Assembly: GCF_006345805.1 (NCBI RefSeq)
Contig: NC_043011.1
Coordinates: 22,704,464-22,768,463, forward strand
Reading direction: 5' to 3'
DNA from: Octopus sinensis
Taxonomy: Eukaryota
DNA length: 64,000 bases
This document shows positions 22,326 to 61,535 of the stretch, piece after piece. The translations under genes and the position numbers were made by a program. The notes below the pieces were generated by a model that was given only the letters and a program-made list of their open reading frames with translations, searched no databases and was not told the origin of the DNA. The first letter of the stretch is position 1. Every line of letters starts with the position of its first letter.

Positions 22326-22435
22326 TTAGCAGCAATTCTGCACACCAGGTGCTTTGCGTACTTTTACTGTGCCGTCAGCATTGCCAAAATATGCTACTTT
22401 CGCCAAATTCAAGAACAGACCAGTTTCAACAACAC
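22326..22435 (-). CDS. RPIA: RPIA last coding exon (GVVETGLFLNLAKVAYFGNADGTVKVRKAPGVQNCC*)
   Basis: GVVETGLF motif; ttcag acceptor; TAA stop at 22326-22328. Confidence 0.96.
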
Positions 22436-23066
22436 CTGAAAGATAACAGAAAATAAATAAAAAAAGAATTGTAAATAACAAAACTGCAAACATCTTCAAT
22501 TTGATTTCAATGCTTATCCTCATGGTTATGAATGTCTGGTAATGACTGAAAGAGTATGTGCGAATACTAATGGCCTAAACAGGGTTTCTCTGAAGGATTT
22601 CTAGAGTAACGTTACTCTACAGGGTATTTAGCTTGGAGATCAAAGAGTCTTTCCAGGTCAAACCACTCCTCTGGTACTATAGACATGAGGTTAAACTATT
22701 GAAGGAAACGGATTTCTTCAAGTTGAGACAACTGGAAGAAGCCCTAAGGGTGAAGCAAGAACAAGATAGTTGGATAATATCCACAGTCTCAGTTGGTTAC
22801 ACTTGGGATTCCAGCAAGAAAGTGTAAATGATAACTGCTTTTTATAGTAGTTATGGAGAAAGCACTTTGAGGATTTTACTCCTGTTATCCTTCCAGAAAT
22901 AGTGGGCAGAGAAGATGGATGGATGGATAGACTGTATCAAACGAGGTAGTAGCAGTGGTATAACGATCATATCTAGTTATCTACCAATATCTGGATTTAC
23001 TGAACTCTTTCGACTGATTCATAATCAAAGTTTGACTTTTTGCTCACTTGGAATGTCCCCACCATA

Positions 23067-23510: not shown

Positions 23511-23944
23511 ATACTATTATTCTATCGCTCAGTTACCACTCCGTTTTTACGGGGGGAGGGGGCCAGTCAATTACATCAACCCTAATACCCAACTGGTATT
23601 TATTTTATCGACTACAAAAGGATGAAAGGCAAAGTCAACCTCAGTGGAATTTAAAGTCAGAGTATAAAGACAAATGAAATTTTGTTGAGCATTTTGCCCA
23701 GCTACAAGCAGATATAATCGACCCACTGTGGTAGCTCATCCAGTAGGAAATAACAACCAAATTTCTTGCCAAGATATACCCCTAAATAAAGATTGTGTGG
23801 TCATGGCTGGAATAACTCTGATAATAATATCTGCTTGATCAGAATTGGTCTGGGGTGGCGGAACAACACACCACCAACAACAAACAAAATGGAATGTAAT
23901 TACTTGATGTATTTTAGAAAGGTGCATGTCCAAATTAGATTTAC

Positions 23945-24044
23945 CTGGAATCAATTTAATTGCAGTATTCACCTCCACCCAGTCAGCATGTTCTTCAAAT
24001 AGCCAATCAAGGACAAAATTACCATTATCAGTAACAATTGGGCC
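23945..24044 (-). CDS. RPIA: RPIA penultimate exon (GPIVTDNGNFVLDWLFEEHADWVEVNTAIKLIP)
   Basis: GP.VTDNGN..LD motif; ttgcag acceptor and gtaaat donor; 100 bp. Confidence 0.97.
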
Positions 24045-25307
24045 CTGCAATAGAAAAATATAAATACATAAATGTTTTACCCTTTCGTGGCTATATTTCT
24101 TACAAAATACCATGTTTTTTTTTTTTTTTTTTTTTTTTTGGGGGGGGGGGGGGTCAATCATCATCATCACCATTCATTTTCCATGCTGGCATGGGTTAAA
24201 TGGTTTGAGTGGAACTAGTAAGCTGAAGAGCTGCACCAGGCTTTAGTCTGTTTTGGCTTGGTTTCTACAGCTGGATGCCCTTCCTAATGCCAACCACCCC
24301 ATAGCGTGTACCAGGTGTCTTTTACGTGTCACCAGCACTGGCTACAACTATGATTTCACTTAGCTTGATGTATCTTTTCAAGCAAGGAAAATTGCCTAAA
24401 GTCTTGGTGACTTCTCATCATCTCCATGAGACTCAACATCCAAAGATCATATTTCACCATTTCATCCCATATCTTCCTGGGTTTACCTCTTCCACAGGTT
24501 CTCACCACAATTAGAGATCGGCACTTCTTTACACATACACACACACACACACACAAATGTGTGTGTGAGTGTATTAATGTTTCCTTGCTTTGGCATCACA
24601 TGACAGTTGTAAGAGAGTTTCACTGTCGCTCATTTCCAATCTTCCATGGAAACATGTCTGGTCACAGGGAAATATTACTCTACTCAGAAACAGGTGAGGG
24701 TTGGCAACTGGAAGGGCATCCACCCATAGAAAATCCACCTCAACAAATTAGGTCCAACTCATGCAAAGCAAGGAAAAATGTATGTTAAAACATTAGTGAT
24801 GATGATGATGATGATGAATCAACAATTTTTATGACTACAACAAGTTAGTGTTTGCAACAAGGAAGTCTAAGGCTTCAATTTCAATATGGATATTTTAAAA
24901 CAAGCTTTATATCACAGAGCTAGAAGTGATCACAAATAAGTAGGTGCCAAACACATGAAATTTCATGTTAAAAGTCACATTTTACTTTAACAACCAATCA
25001 GAATTCTGTTTACATAGTCAGTTTGATCGGTCACCTTCCTCTGTTGGTTGAGCAAAGTGTTATTCAAGTTGATGTTTATTGATAAATAAACTTATTTAGC
25101 AATACTTGTGAGTATTTATCAGCTTTGTTTTTGTTGATAGGAATTATCAACAACTTTTCCTGTGACTGTGATTTGAGAAGACATACAGAAGTATGCTATA
25201 TATATAATGTATGTATGTATGTATATATATATATATATATATACATACACACAAATATATATACATACATACACACATACACATATATGTTCATATATAT
25301 ATGTTTT

Positions 25308-25539: not shown

Positions 25540-25681
25540 AGCTTTGTACTCAGCCATTCGTAGTTTAGCCACTCCACCAAGCATAGCTTCAATTTTTAGT
25601 TTCACTGGTCGATAAGCAACTGGCAAGACTTCAATAGGAACTCCACGCTTCCACTTTTGGCCAAGGTTTTCAGAATCTTTT
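25540..25681 (-). CDS. RPIA: RPIA internal exon (RKDSENLGQKWKRGVPIEVLPVAYRPVKLKIEAMLGGVAKLRMAEYKA)
   Basis: G(V/I)PIEV motif; tgtag acceptor and gtaagt donor; 142 bp; phases match both neighbouring exons. Confidence 0.97.
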
Positions 25682-26054
25682 CTACAATAGGCATAAAAGA
25701 AAAAAATTTGTTTTCACTTTGTAATCCAGATAATAAATAATTTATTCAAAATATAGATATATATTTAAAAAAAAAAAAATAAAAGAAGTTACATATATTG
25801 AATTGAATATATAAATGCATCATCATCATCATCATCATCATCGTTTAGCGTCCGCTTTCCATGCTAGCATGGGTTCGACGGGTCAACTGGGGTCTGTGAA
25901 GCTGGAAGGCTTCGTCAGGCCCAGTCAGATCTGGCAGTGTTTCTACGGCTGGATGCCCTTCCTAACGCCAACCACTCTGCGAGTGTAGTGGGTGTTTTTT
26001 ATGTGCCATGCATAATACCGTTATATTCGTGAGTGGGGAGTATGTGTGTGTGTA

Positions 26055-47045: not shown

Positions 47046-47839
47046 TAGTATAATATTAAGAACTTTTTCATTTATTGCAAGGTAGTCAGAATTTTTAGGA
47101 GATAAAAACTACTCATTTTACCATTTCTTCTGGCATGCAGTTGTTGAAAATTCCTGGGTACAAATTGAAATGCAAAAGAACGAAATAATAAATGGATTTA
47201 TGAATAAAAGTTTGGTAATTATGTTTATTCCACCACGTGACACTTATTATTGCAAACATGTTTTAACAAACCTATACTATTTACGCACACAAATACATTC
47301 ATATATGTATATATATATAATATGTCTCAAGTTGTAGCTGTAATTCAAAGGGGCCAGCCTTGTCATATTCTGTGTGAGGCTAAATCTCCCTAAGAACTAC
47401 GTTAATGTTATGCATGTCTGTGGAGTACTCAGTCATTTGTGAGTTAATTTTATCATCGTGTGGTAATGAAAAGTGAAATTGACAGCCAATATTTGCTGTG
47501 TGCATGTATCTATGTATGAACTTTTCTTCGGATTTCTGTATCTACTGTCTCTCTCACTTTCTCCTTCACTTCCTTTGTGTCACTCTTCTCTCACGCTCTT
47601 GATTTAACAACATGTGTGTATATCTATGTATCTACTTTCCTTGCGATGTGATAAACATTTAAAAACACAAAATGAACACCGTCACCACTCACCGTCTCTT
47701 TCACTCTCTTATGTCCTTAGTAACTAAGGGGGATTTGGTTGCAATTTCTCAGAGTGAGACTCCCATGATAGTAGAGATGACGGATTTGAAATATAAAAAA
47801 AACAAACAAAATACATGATGAACAGAACAAGGGTTTTAC

Positions 47840-47973
47840 CTGTAATCAGCAATAATTATAAAGTCTTTCGCACATGAGGCAACAATCTTTTCTTGGAACT
47901 GACATGCACCACCACCTTTGATGCAATTCAGTTGGTTGTCAACTTCATCAGCTCCATCAATAGATATATCTAA
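47840..47973 (-). CDS. RPIA: Ribose-5-phosphate isomerase A, internal exon ([44 protein letters not shown])
   Basis: RpiA signatures DGADEV and KGGG..EK; tttacag acceptor and gtaaaa donor; 134 bp, phase 0 to 2. Confidence 0.97.
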
Positions 47974-48486
47974 CTGTAAATAAAGTACAAAAAGGATATA
48001 TATAAAAATACATCTGCATGATTTGTGAATTTACAATTGTATTGTATAATGTATAATGCATATTAGTGTAAATATGTAAACATAATTTATTATACACTGA
48101 AATTATTATTACATGAAGGCAGCTGTGAAACAGCTGTAACCCTAAGGATGACAAGTGGATAAATATATTCAACTGTCATGCTCCTTAATTAATTATGGTT
48201 CATAACTACACTCACGGAGTGGTTGGCGTTAGGAAGGGCATCCAGCTGTAGAAACACTGCCAGATCAGACTGGAGCCTGGTGCAGCCCCTGGCTTCCCAG
48301 ACTCCGGTCGAACCGTCCAACCCGTGCTAGTGCAGAAAACGGACGCAAACGATGATGATGATGATGATTTGTGTGTGTGTATGATAAGAAATAGTTTTCA
48401 TTTCTTTTTATGGAAACAAAAAAGATACAAAGGACTGCAAAAAAAAAGTGCTTAAGTGAGATTGAGACAAAAATCATTGATTAGAG

Positions 48487-56558: not shown

Positions 56559-58387
56559 TTAACTCTTTCTTTACCAAACAGCCCAAACCTGCCTGAAAAA
56601 ATTCTGGTTCATATGACCAAGGTGCCCAAACCCTCCCATAACCACATATTCATATTTAAATGAGAATTTCAGTGCAAATCTCATTAATACTATTTGTGAA
56701 AACATGTGATTCCACTTCGTCAACAATTGAGTTACAGTTTCTGACATCAATTGTGGATTTTGGGAGATTTTTTTTTTTCTAAGTTTTTTTCTGATCAATT
56801 TTTTGACTAAAAATGGATACTACTAGCTTATCTGTCAAGCAGCGAGTCAGAATTCAAAGAATTTTCAACTGAAGACCTTGAGAAATCTACTAAATCTGTA
56901 ACTGGTAAAAAAAAATAAAGAAAAAAAAAACCCACATGGTATTTGATAATAAATCCAATGTTTCATTCCCTGAAAGTGAATGCTGTGATTCTGAGAACTC
57001 CGATGACAGTGATAAAGAAAATGAACTTACACCTGAATGGAGTAAGAATATGAAAACTGTTTCTTTCAGTGATTTTTACGAAGGGACTGGATTAAGTTCC
57101 AATCTCTCTCAGGAGAGAAAACTGTTAGACAATTGCCTTTTAGTTTTTCCTCTTAGCTTGTTTCAATTAATTGCAGTGGAAACAAACCGTTATGCTGAAT
57201 ATAAACAAAGCGAAGAGAGATAGATAGTTTATGGTTTCCCACAAACGTAGATGAAATTAGAGCATATTTTGCTATAAATATTATTATGGGCATTAGAAAG
57301 CTACCCAGAATTACAAATTACTACAGCAACGATGAAGCCTTTGGAGATAATTATGTCTCAAGTTTAATGACGAGGACATGGTTTCTAAAATTAACATGCG
57401 ATAGACATAAACAGTACATCAGTACAAGGAGAACCAGGCTTTGATCCCTTATTTAAAATAAGACCCCGCAATGACTGTGTTCAAAGCACATATAAAACAT
57501 TTTACAAACCAGGGAGATATCTATCCATTGATGAGGGTATGGTGGGCTATAAAGGCAGAGTACGTTTTTAACAATATAAGCCAAGAAAGCCCACAAAATG
57601 GAGGATCAAAGTTTGGAAGATTTGTGAATCGAATACCGAGTACTGCTCTGGATTTGAATTTTATACAGGCAAAAGAGACAATTATGTAAGCCAGCATAGC
57701 ACAGCCTAGAGTAATATTGTGGTCTGGAATTTATCACTTCCATACCATAACCAGGGCCGTGTATTATTTTTTGACTGGTTTTTCAGTCCAGTCAAACTTG
57801 CTGTGTCAACACATACATGTGCTACAGTGATTGCTAGTAGAAAAGGACTGCCATTGGATATAAAAAAAAGGCAAAATTTTAAAAAAAAAAAGGGTGAAAT
57901 AATTCAACGGCAGAAAGGAAATCTGCTAGTGACCACAAACAGAGATAAGAGGTAGATCAATTTCCATTTACCCATGCACAGACACATGTGAATGAAAATG
58001 GCACTCCATATAAAATGAAGAGTCAGACTCGAAAGGGCAGATTTTTGTTTCTCAAGGCGAATAAAATGGAATTTACAAATTTTTAAAGTTTAATCTGAGC
58101 TAACTTTATCAATTTGGGAAATCACATATTTCTCTAATGTTGTAAGGGTTCATAAGGGGATGAATTTTCAAAATCGCCATCATGTAACGCAAAATACCTT
58201 GCAGTATTCACTCTGGTTCCATCCGTTTCAAAGTTCAAGTCTCGCCGAAGTTGACAAACACTGTCAATGCAGCACTGAAATTTGTTGGTTTTCCCTTTTC
58301 TGTCTGGCTTGTAGATGCAATTCAAAGATCTAGGCTAATCATAGCGTGAGACGCTGATTCGACCTGACTCTAGTGTTAAAGTGTTAA
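56559..58387 (+). pseudogene. piggyBac (PGBD4-like) transposase pseudogene
   Basis: ETNRYA, DPLFKIRP, SIDEGMV.YKGR, QYKP.KP.K..IK, FEFYTGK, FFDWFFS, RKGLP; multiple stops and frameshifts; TTAA-bounded. Confidence 0.9.
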
Positions 58388-59114
58388 GGATACATATGTC
58401 TGTGAAATTACGAAGTGGTTCACAGCTTAATTTCAGATGTAAGAATTCAATTATTCGACAATTGGATGCTCATTGTCGATAGCGATGAAGAATCCACAAG
58501 GTTAGTTTTACCAATTTGGAAATTTTGTGTTATCACTTTACTCAAGGTAGCCACGACAGTAACTCTGAGGGAAGATGTCGGATTACAGTAATGTTTTTTC
58601 TATTTCTGTATACCTGACTTCTGAGACCCCGTTCGGTCACGACACAGACCATGGGATTGCACCTAGAAAGTTACCCTCCTAGACACAAGTCCGGGCGAGG
58701 TTGTTTATGGAAGACCAGCAGTCGCCCATGCATACCAGCCTCCCCTCTCCACGCCACCAGTGTTATCCAAGGGAAAGATAAAGGTCGATGCAGCTTGGCA
58801 CCTGTGACGTCGCAACTCATTTCTACAGCTGAGTGAACGGGAGCAACGTGAAATAAAGTGCCTTGCTCAAGAACACAACCTGACTTAACGTTCATATATT
58901 ATAGAAAGCCACAAACCACTTGAGTATTCTCAAGACGAATACTGTAGTTTTGTGGCTTTCTATAGTATACACACGTTGAGTAAAATATACAGAATGCTAT
59001 TCTGAACCAATACAGCTTCTGTCGCTAAATAAATTTTCTTTTCTGATTTTTTTTCTATTAGCTTTTTTTTTTAGTATATTTTCTAACAGACAATTTTATT
59101 ATTTAATATTTCAG

Positions 59115-60200
59115 GATGCAAAAATGGTGATCAATTTTCCAAGAAAAGACGGTTCTATGTTTCCCGAAAACGGAAGACCTGGAACAATAACGGATAAAGC
59201 AGGAGATTTCGTCGCTGAAAGTGATGTTATCATACTGTCTTCTCCTCCAAACCATTTCCAAGATTATTTAAAAGCCATGAAGAAATACATTAAAAAGAGA
59301 ACGGTTATCATCGGTGTACCTGGCAGATCAGGTTTTGAATATCAGTGCCGGACAAGTCTGGAAGAGCTTGGTGAACAATGTACCATCGTTAACTTAGAGA
59401 CGTGTCCTTGGGTATGCGAACAAGTCAAATTTGGTTCTCAAATTGATGTCAAGGTGACAGTAGCATCGATCGTAACCTCTACTCTGTTCGGGACATCTCC
59501 CCCGAAACGTGGGCCACTGTCAATTTTGCAGTTAATACTTGGCGGTGATTGTGCTCTTCAAAATTCTCTTAACTTTATGTCTGTACTCCTGTCGCCCTTC
59601 GTATATCTCGAATGCTGTCTTTTGTTTGGAAGATGGAGTGAATGGGACGAAAAGCCGCTGGAAAGTGAACTGGGATTATTCGAAGACGTCAGCGAAAAGA
59701 CAGCCGAAATGATTTCAAAGTGTTCTAATGAATGTTCTAAAATTATCCAGGCTATAAAAACAGGCAAACCAGAATTGAAAATCAACGACTATAAAGGAAT
59801 AGAAGAATGGTTTGCCGGATTTAAAGACTGCATTGGAGACAGCAGTAGCTTACTGACAACATTGAAAACTTGTAAGATATGGGGAGACATTAAGCACCCA
59901 ATGAAAAAAGATAGGAAAAAGTCAGAATACACACCAGATTTAGAAGAGCGAATCTCAGAATATTTATCGTATGGTTTAATTGTAATTCGAGGTGTGGCTG
60001 AAATTCTTCAGCAAGAAACGCCCGTGATTGACAAATTGATAACTTGGTGCCAGACAAAAAGCAAAAAGAATTACATGAAGGACGGTAAAGTGTTAACAGA
60101 CAAAAACATTCAGAACACATCCTGCCCTCAGAAGTTTAAGTTCAGCACACTTAACGAAATCCTTTTTGTAAAAGCGTTACCGACAGATATAGAACTTTGA
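59115..60200 (+). CDS. Octopine/opine dehydrogenase family protein, one large exon; catalytic residues appear substituted
   Basis: The 358-aa ORF from ATG 59124 aligns colinearly, by eye, with molluscan octopine dehydrogenase: GFEYQCR, ET.PW, LFGRW..WD.KP, CSNEC, HP.K, G.IV..GVA, DKLI.W.Q, CPQ. A polypyrimidine tract plus tttcag acceptor at 59114 is in frame (DAK-M). Confidence 0.9.
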   Translation, partial: DAKMVINFPRKDGSMFPENGRPGTITDKAGDFVAESDVIILSSPPNHFQDYLKAMKKYIKKRTVIIGVPGRSGFEYQCRTSLEELGEQCTIVNLETCPWVCEQVKFGSQIDVKVTVASIVTSTLFGTSPPKRGPLSILQLILGGDCALQNSLNFMSVLLSPFVYLECCLLFGRWSEWDEKPLESELGLFEDVSEKTAEMISKCSNECSKIIQAIKTGKPELKINDYKGIEEWFAGFKDCIGDSSSLLTTLKTCKIWGDIKHPMKKDRKKSEYTPDLEERISEYLSYGLIVIRGVAEILQQETPVIDKLITWCQTKSKKNYMKDGKVLTDKNIQNTSCPQKFKFSTLNEILFVKALPTDIEL

Positions 60201-60266
60201 AGGACTTCTGATTCTAAACCTGTAAAGTTACGCTAACATTACAAGGAGCTCTTAACAATTCAAGAA

Positions 60267-60272
60267 AATAAA
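60267..60272 (+). promoter_or_regulatory. Candidate polyadenylation signal of the opine dehydrogenase-like gene
   Basis: AATAAA 67 nt after the stop codon. Confidence 0.5.
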
Positions 60273-60346
60273 GGAAAAAGTAACACTAATAACTATATAT
60301 AATATATATATATATATATATTATGTATATAATACATATATAAATA

Positions 60347-60874: not shown

Positions 60875-61290
60875 GAGCTGGCAGAAACGTTAGCACGCCG
60901 GGCGAAATGCTTAGCGGTATTTCGTCTGCCGTTACGTTGTGAGTTCAAATTCCGCCGAGGTCGACTTTGCCTTTCATCCTTTCGGGGTCGATAAATTAAG
61001 TACCAGTTACGCACTGGGGTCGATGTAATCGACTTGATACCTATGTCTGTCCTTGTTTGTCCCCTCTGTGTTTAGCCCCTTGTGGGTAATAAAGAAATAG
61101 GTATTTCGTCTGCCGTTACGTTGTGAGTTCAAATTCCGCCGAGGTCGACTTTGCCTTTCATCCTTTCGGGGTCGATAAATTAAGTACCAGTTACGCACTG
61201 GGGTCGATGTAATCGACTTAATACCTATGTCTGTCCTTGTTTGTCCCCTCTGTGTTTAGCCCCTTGTGGGTAATAAAGAAATACGTATTT
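60875..61290 (+). mobile_element. Young Nin-domain SINE with a tandemly duplicated 184-bp body
   Basis: Units at 60917 and 61101 nearly identical; a third starts at 61285. Confidence 0.9.
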
Positions 61291-61535
61291 AATAACACGC
61301 CTTCATGTTCTGAGTACAAGCCTTCCCGAAGCCAACTTTGCCTGTCATCCTTTCGGAGGCCATAAAGTAAGTATCGGTTAGCTACTGGGATCAATATAAT
61401 TGACTATGTATCCAATCACCACCGCTACCACCACCAGATATGTCAGCCTTATGCCGATGTGAGAAATCAATACTGTCCAATACTAAAATGGCGATAAAAT
61501 TGCAGCAACGGTGCATCCTCAGCTCAAAAAAAGAA

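Follow-up and report, generated by a model that had tools for sequence, protein, structure and literature searches.

A candidate pseudoenzyme of the opine dehydrogenase family conserved across octopods

A degenerate paralog of octopine dehydrogenase (ODH), whose last coding exon lies in the Octopus sinensis sequence analyzed here (the window, 64,000 nucleotides; Table 1), is probably a conserved pseudoenzyme that has the predicted two-domain fold of the family and would serve as a non-catalytic binder of a metabolite or a partner. The sequence-only reading of this locus had suggested that the paralog is under selection and has either lost its catalytic activity or been repurposed; within the limits of sequence comparison, this suggestion is supported by the loss of the catalytic dyad, the loss of the NADH-binding loop in the orthologs, the conservation of the protein, a hint of splicing and the presence of an intact paralog. 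Octopine dehydrogenase plays in octopus muscle the role that lactate dehydrogenase plays in vertebrates, and a disarmed version conserved beside it could be a candidate for regulating or sensing the octopine pathway. The gene itself is already known, being present in databases under an enzyme-like name; a pseudoenzyme in the opine dehydrogenase family, with parallel losses across molluscs, appears to be new. Searches of the open full-text literature, which leaves out most subscription papers, including the family reviews, yielded no description of an opine dehydrogenase with a degenerate catalytic site in octopus or any other mollusc.

Table 1. Features of the window discussed in the text, with window positions
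Feature	Position	Strand	Evidence
Last coding exon, degenerate opine dehydrogenase paralog	59115..60200	+	PF02317 match, Pecten ODH alignment
Polypyrimidine tract and AG splice acceptor, phase 0	59090..59114	+	Sequence, starts of RNA-like contigs
AATAAA, candidate polyadenylation signal	60267..60272	+	Sequence
Broken piggyBac-type transposase remnant	57205..58009	+	Four pieces match DDE_Tnp_1_7; cut off at 58009
Ribose-5-phosphate isomerase A (RpiA), four 3' exons	22371-22442, 23943-24047, 25543-25686, 47839-47976	-	
Glu replacing catalytic His212	59610..59612	+	His in 125/125 relatives; Glu in 4/4 other octopod records
Tyr replacing catalytic Asp329 (His in Argonauta)	59961..59963	+	Asp in 125/125 relatives
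Glu replacing Arg149 (PWACR to PWVCE)	59418..59420	+	Arg in 125/125 relatives; Glu in 4/4 octopod records
Retained Glu at the position of Pecten Glu142, which contacts the guanidinium group in the scallop enzyme	59397..59399	+	Alignment; accessible part of PMC2924402
Trp kept at Pecten Trp278 (guanidinium contact)	59808..59810	+	Alignment; accessible part of PMC2924402
Arg probably equivalent to Arg324 (NADH sensor)	59949..59951	+	Alignment; adjacent Tyr325 deleted

The exon and its orthologs

The exon comprises 361 codons followed by TGA, and is preceded by a phase-0 acceptor (TTTCAG) with its polypyrimidine tract. Its uninterrupted frame, reported earlier from inspection of the letters, is borne out: when the exon was shuffled 2000 times, the mean length of the longest frame without a stop was 84 codons, and none exceeded 193. 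The polyadenylation signal noted earlier 3' of the exon was likewise found, as a candidate AATAAA 67 bases after the stop codon. Intactness holds for the exon but not for the whole gene within the window, as about 51 N-terminal codons sit in an exon outside it; the orthologs carry 51 additional N-terminal residues, which form the first Rossmann strand and the glycine loop, and the gene has an intron after codon 51.

The exon product matches PF02317, the helical domain of the family, at 47.5 bits (cut-off, 30), and the HMMER alignment with Pecten ODH (3c7a) has an E-value of 1e-60. It is identical over 361/361 residues to the C-terminal part of a named O. sinensis model (P0004, XP_029646135), and four other octopod records are 83-99.7% identical to it: O. 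vulgaris (P0005; 360/361), O. bimaculoides (339/361), Argonauta hians (299/361) and a further octopod record (332/358). The named records among these are called 'octopine dehydrogenase(-like)' or 'opine dehydrogenase domain-containing' in the databases. A search of the ESM Atlas for the disarmed paralog returned only PF02317 clusters.

Loss of catalytic and cofactor-binding residues

As a reference, we assembled 125 enzyme-type relatives, namely, the 118 nearest to the intact octopus enzyme (380-460 residues) and 7 intact members of the scallop ODH clade. Across this set, which was chosen by similarity and includes few assayed proteins, His212, Asp329 (which we take to be the numbered catalytic Asp of the Pecten dyad), Arg324, Glu38 (presumably part of the NADH site), Arg149 and Lys163 are invariant (125/125), and Gly11 is present in 124/125. 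Work by Mueller in 2007 is said to have found the H212A/D329A double mutant of the Pecten enzyme inactive. According to PMC2924402, the Pecten enzyme employs a His-Asp dyad, in which His212 holds the arginine carboxyl; NADH is sensed by Arg324, and the guanidinium group is contacted by Glu142 and Trp278. NADH binding is said in PMC11084901 to require the GXGXXA/G motif.

The HMMER alignment to 3c7a confirmed the replacements that had previously been read by eye, namely, SFVHPAIL to VYLECCLL (H212E), RYLTEDIP to the one residue shorter R-ISEYLS (D329Y), PWACR to PWVCE and LGTK to KVTV. The position of the gap differed in a faster alignment, and there is no Asp at 329 under either gap placement. 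The loss of the dyad stands after this alignment. Argonauta combines Glu212 with His329, which could be a reversed acid-base pair and would then be a partial compensation. The Arg of LEER aligns with Arg324, which is probably kept, judging by the alignment, although the deletion of Tyr325 beside it may shift this residue.

As searches of this assembly yielded no exon 1, the state of the NADH loop is taken from the orthologs. In all three full-length orthologs, the GGGNGAH loop is replaced, with GSNPTSQ in O. vulgaris and O. bimaculoides and GSEPTAQ in Argonauta, and Glu38 is replaced by Ala. Like the Pecten maximus enzyme (3c7a, 3iqd; PF02317), to which it is 32% identical, the octopod copy has Glu142, Pro145, Trp146, Cys148, Trp278 and, probably, Arg324; unlike it, the octopod proteins have Asn or Glu at position 11, Val for Lys163, Arg for Gln118 and Phe for Tyr235, have lost Pro331 and Tyr325, and carry the replacements of His212, Asp329 and Arg149 listed in Table 1, together with the loss of the glycine loop and Glu38 in the orthologs. 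New acidic residues appear at positions 149, 212, 236 (in place of Gln), 237 (in place of Gly), 322 and 323. Of 82 near-invariant positions of the family, the O. vulgaris ortholog keeps 43, compared with 81 in the intact paralog.

With both the dyad and the cofactor loop lost, opine synthesis is unlikely. A slow but genuine opine dehydrogenase that has unusual residues and acts on a different substrate would be consistent with the probable retention of Arg324 and with the tolerance of the clade for change, seen in clam members of which some have an altered loop but still possess His212 and Asp329. Nevertheless, replacements have affected both dyad residues, the second loop glycine, Glu38, Arg149 and Lys163, each of them invariant in 124-125 of the 125 relatives, which makes this reading very improbable.

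The intact paralog and the phylogeny of the family

The genome contains two PF02317 matches, the degenerate exon and an intact ODH (P0009, C15:31.98 Mb), which are located 9.2 Mb apart on the same contig. The intact gene (G000:C15:31977724-31978938; L002/L005) is a single open frame of 405 codons with all motifs present, and its product is 83% identical to Sepia ODH. Cephalopod ODH (Sepia, Loligo, Doryteuthis and P0009) is of the same family as the disarmed copy, and P0009 lies on the same chromosome-scale contig; unlike the disarmed copy, cephalopod ODH retains all motifs within one open frame and belongs to a different clade, and the two are 31% identical.

Trees were built with FastTree (97 rows) and with IQ-TREE under a mixture model (38 chosen rows). 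The octopod degenerate proteins fall into an 18-row clade (support, 100/98) together with P0337, which at 813 bits to 3c7a is closely related to Pecten ODH, and apart from the cephalopod, gastropod and most bivalve enzymes. The sister of the octopod proteins is P0011 (93/96). The octopod stem is 1.14 changes per site long and is followed by tips of 0.02-0.13; such long branches call for care. Placement of these proteins as sisters of cephalopod ODH, as expected from a recent cephalopod duplication, was rejected (p-AU 0.0013). No squid or cuttlefish ortholog was recognized among the named records, and the search of representatives was empty between 84% and 36% identity. By these sequence comparisons, the disarmed gene is a member of the ancient scallop ODH clade, and because chitons, bivalves and cephalopods are all represented in this clade, the duplication would be older than the divergence of these classes. 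The crystallized scallop enzyme and the cephalopod enzyme are accordingly paralogs, with the disarmed gene as the octopus counterpart of the scallop enzyme. Opine dehydrogenases do not group by substrate, as stated in the accessible text of PMC11084901.

In Mactra, members of the two clades adjoin, with consecutive locus tags (ACF0H5_005505 and ACF0H5_005506), and in Mercenaria, Mya, Dreissena and Argonauta, the contigs that carry the members of the two clades have the same length (the pairs being P0178/P0329, P0200/P0322, P0194/P0327, P0198/P0328 and P0159/P0003). This proximity suggests an old tandem duplication.

Degenerate relatives in other molluscs

The scallop ODH clade also includes proteins of a chiton, an ark clam and heterodont clams, many of which have His212 replaced by Tyr, Gly, Asn or Arg. 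Degenerate 'octopine dehydrogenase-like' proteins from Liolophura (XP_064605857), Tegillarca (KAJ8306082), Mercenaria and Mactra, along with P0011, P0013 and P0334, share with the octopod copy the clade, the replacement of His212, the altered loop and, often, the loss of Arg149. Most of these proteins differ from the octopod copy in that Asp329 is present and 46-66 of the 82 near-invariant positions are retained, compared with 43 in the latter; identity is only 28-35% in the pairs measured. Annotations as 'octopine dehydrogenase-like' in octopus, chiton and clam genomes, hence, cannot be counted as enzymes.

A well-supported clam subclade (P0322, P0327, P0328, P0329, P0338 and P0010; 100/100) has an altered loop and has lost Arg149 and Lys163, and some of its members have lost His212 as well. 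A single origin of the eight degenerate rows from different classes was neither supported nor rejected (p-AU 0.36). Judging from the sequences, degeneration occurred more than once, the clam subclade being separate. A limpet protein from the other clade (P0282) has Asn in place of His212.

Predicted fold and conservation across octopods

Structure prediction, proposed earlier as a check, points to retention of the two-domain architecture, with Rossmann and helical domains. The O. vulgaris ortholog was modeled twice with AlphaFold2, at pLDDT values of 88.4 and 90.5; the first model superimposes on scallop ODH (3iqd) with a TM score of 0.91 and an rmsd of 2.0, and a second comparison gave a Z score of 52.3 and an rmsd of 2.5 over 401 aligned residues. 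Some bias of the models is to be expected because the underlying alignments included active enzymes.

Selection was assessed at the protein level. When point mutations were simulated neutrally up to the distance from Argonauta (83% identity), the frame remained free of stop codons in 16 of 1000 simulations, and none of 1000 matched the conservative spectrum of changes observed in the comparison with Argonauta. Retained family positions vary at only 1 of 43 sites versus 80 of 331 others (p=0.0003), whereas replaced positions vary at 8 of 38 sites, much like the same background (p=0.84). The latter result gives no support for a new binding site under special constraint. Together, these patterns are a signature of purifying selection on the protein sequence across octopods.

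The same patterns bear on the notion of a rewired enzyme, which would catalyze another reaction through Glu212, Tyr or His329 and new cysteines on the side of the cleft (144, 213 and 214, with the retained Cys148), with the cofactor site altered or absent. The long stem and the subsequent stasis are what a new function would produce; Glu212, Glu149, Arg118, Cys144 and Cys213 are the same in all four other octopod records; and His329 of Argonauta, together with the retained Glu142, Pro145, Trp146, Cys148 and, probably, Arg324, also speaks for this notion. Against this, positions 329 (Tyr in Octopus, His in Argonauta) and 11 (Asn or Glu) differ among octopods, unlike a fixed catalytic site, the replaced positions show no additional constraint, and structure and profile searches yielded no match to another fold or family, so that we regard a rewired enzyme as rather unlikely.

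Strong constraint on the positions that maintain the fold, but not on those of the cleft, would also be expected of an enzyme-derived structural protein valued for stability and bulk in the lens, skin or another tissue. There is a precedent in the same animals, the S- and omega-crystallins of cephalopods, which derive from glutathione S-transferase and aldehyde dehydrogenase, respectively. Like enzyme-crystallins and metabolic pseudoenzymes, the octopod protein combines a conserved enzyme fold and lost catalytic residues with an active paralog alongside; unlike enzyme-crystallins, it belongs to a different family, is present as a single copy in the genome, in contrast to the expansion of S-crystallins, and is known here from sequence rather than from abundance. 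Given, in addition, that a chiton and clams, animals that have no cephalopod-type lens, also possess degenerate relatives, we consider such a structural role quite improbable.

Evidence of splicing

Four sequencing runs were compared with positions 58300-60290; the RNA nature of three of these is a guess, and the fourth is probably DNA. Three RNA-like contigs, one from each of three studies, start at 59113 and span the exon, carrying 500, 272 and 456 additional letters that do not match the intron. Unique bins of the intron are without cover in the three RNA-like runs, whereas the probable DNA run reads into the intron. These contig boundaries are a good hint of splicing rather than a measure of expression level or tissue. 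In one run, there are just two differences from the exon, one synonymous and one nonsynonymous. Downstream of the exon, contigs end near an AT microsatellite, including in the probable DNA run.

The divergent accession is absent from the supplements of two octopus proteomics papers (PMC6635378 and PMC5434110), which cover differential proteins only; PMC6635378 lists an accession other than that of the degenerate gene. The accessible portions of PMC5434110, PMC7438024 and PMC12536604 contain nothing on this gene.

Proposed function

The observations suggest a scenario in which an old gene duplication in molluscs would have produced two lineages, A and B. With cephalopods making octopine by means of lineage A, lineage B, that of scallop ODH, would have been free to change quickly and would then have been held fixed in octopods. 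The disarmed protein would bind a metabolite or a partner in its cleft without turnover. The nature of the ligand is the weakest step of this scheme. Arginine, octopine or another cationic or guanidino metabolite is a tentative candidate, as the octopod proteins retain Glu142 and Trp278 and have acidic residues in place of Arg149, His212, Gln236 and Gly237; a basic partner could be bound in the same manner. Glu142 and Trp278 are present in alanopine and tauropine dehydrogenases as well and, therefore, do not single out arginine.

In a broader and decidedly speculative form, the octopod protein would be the extreme member of an overlooked molluscan lineage of disarmed ODHs dating back to the divergence of chitons, bivalves and cephalopods; such a protein might link the metabolism of burst swimming to a partner protein by sensing arginine, phospho-arginine or octopine without a cofactor. 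A regulatory subunit is a related option; three runs of complex prediction for the O. vulgaris protein and the intact paralog were discordant (0.01, 0.75 and 0.01) and do not weigh on it in either direction. The non-catalytic binder that we favor would be cheap to examine, as a single soluble protein of 46 kDa with the active paralog as a control.

The missing first exon and the genomic neighborhood

Exon 1 of the degenerate gene was not found genome-wide in this assembly by protein search and two degenerate patterns, or by tblastn or motif scans of the 150 kb upstream, the 150 kb downstream and 200 kb around a duplicate of the neighboring sequence. The first 76 residues of the database model P0004, assembled from 56936-57055 and 58436-58558, were rejected as the missing N-terminus: these stretches are unrelated to the family, and three other species have an ODH-homologous N-terminus. 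They are likely to be a mis-annotation caused by the missing exon.

A 44-kb segment of the window (13797-58009) is repeated about 400 kb away with 97-99% identity (G000:C15:23113143-23156485, near C15:23.16 Mb). The copy in the window stops inside the piggyBac remnant at 58009, and the other copy runs on past this point. As the former starts at a gap and the latter ends near one, the repeat is probably an uncollapsed haplotype. An assembly break or a deletion is probable at position 58009, and exon 1 would have been lost with it. The region holds another gene, RpiA, represented by its four 3' exons on the minus strand and head-to-head with the degenerate ODH. Both genes lack their 5' ends in this assembly: searches of the octopus copies of RpiA yielded no 5' exons (profile positions 1-72). 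The concurrent absence points to the assembly as the cause, and we infer that one lost stretch held the 5' ends of both genes.

A decaying pseudogene, with a frame open by chance, might account for the missing exon 1 and for the divergence from Argonauta, which is about twice that of intact ODH (17% versus 9%). However, the exon bears no marks of a pseudogene (stops, frameshifts or neutral change), the frame is open in five octopod records, the neutral simulations miss the conservative spectrum of changes, full-length models exist in O. vulgaris, O. bimaculoides and Argonauta, and the truncation of the neighboring RpiA implicates the assembly. Conservation and splicing, thus, make decay unlikely, and we hold this explanation to be barely credible; a conserved, non-catalytic protein remains the preferred reading.

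The sequence-only reading had also described every transposon frame in the region as decayed. This is correct for the piggyBac-type remnant just upstream, which is broken into four pieces, and the other frames of at least 200 codons in the window look like simple repeats or have no Pfam match where scanned. The claim is limited by long open frames at up to 55 kb from the window (L027:594, plus strand, 831 codons; L008, minus strand, 607 codons; L009, minus strand, 399 codons), which are perhaps retroelement genes. The exon is flanked by high-copy short interspersed repeats at 58620-58880 and 60875-61405, the latter containing a tandem duplication of about 140 bases. Elsewhere in the assembly, a 112-kb contig carries an intronless RpiA gene (G000:C8750:50694-51329; L048), approximately 40-45% identical to the octopus exons, and a broken second copy; this contig is probably DNA of a foreign organism.
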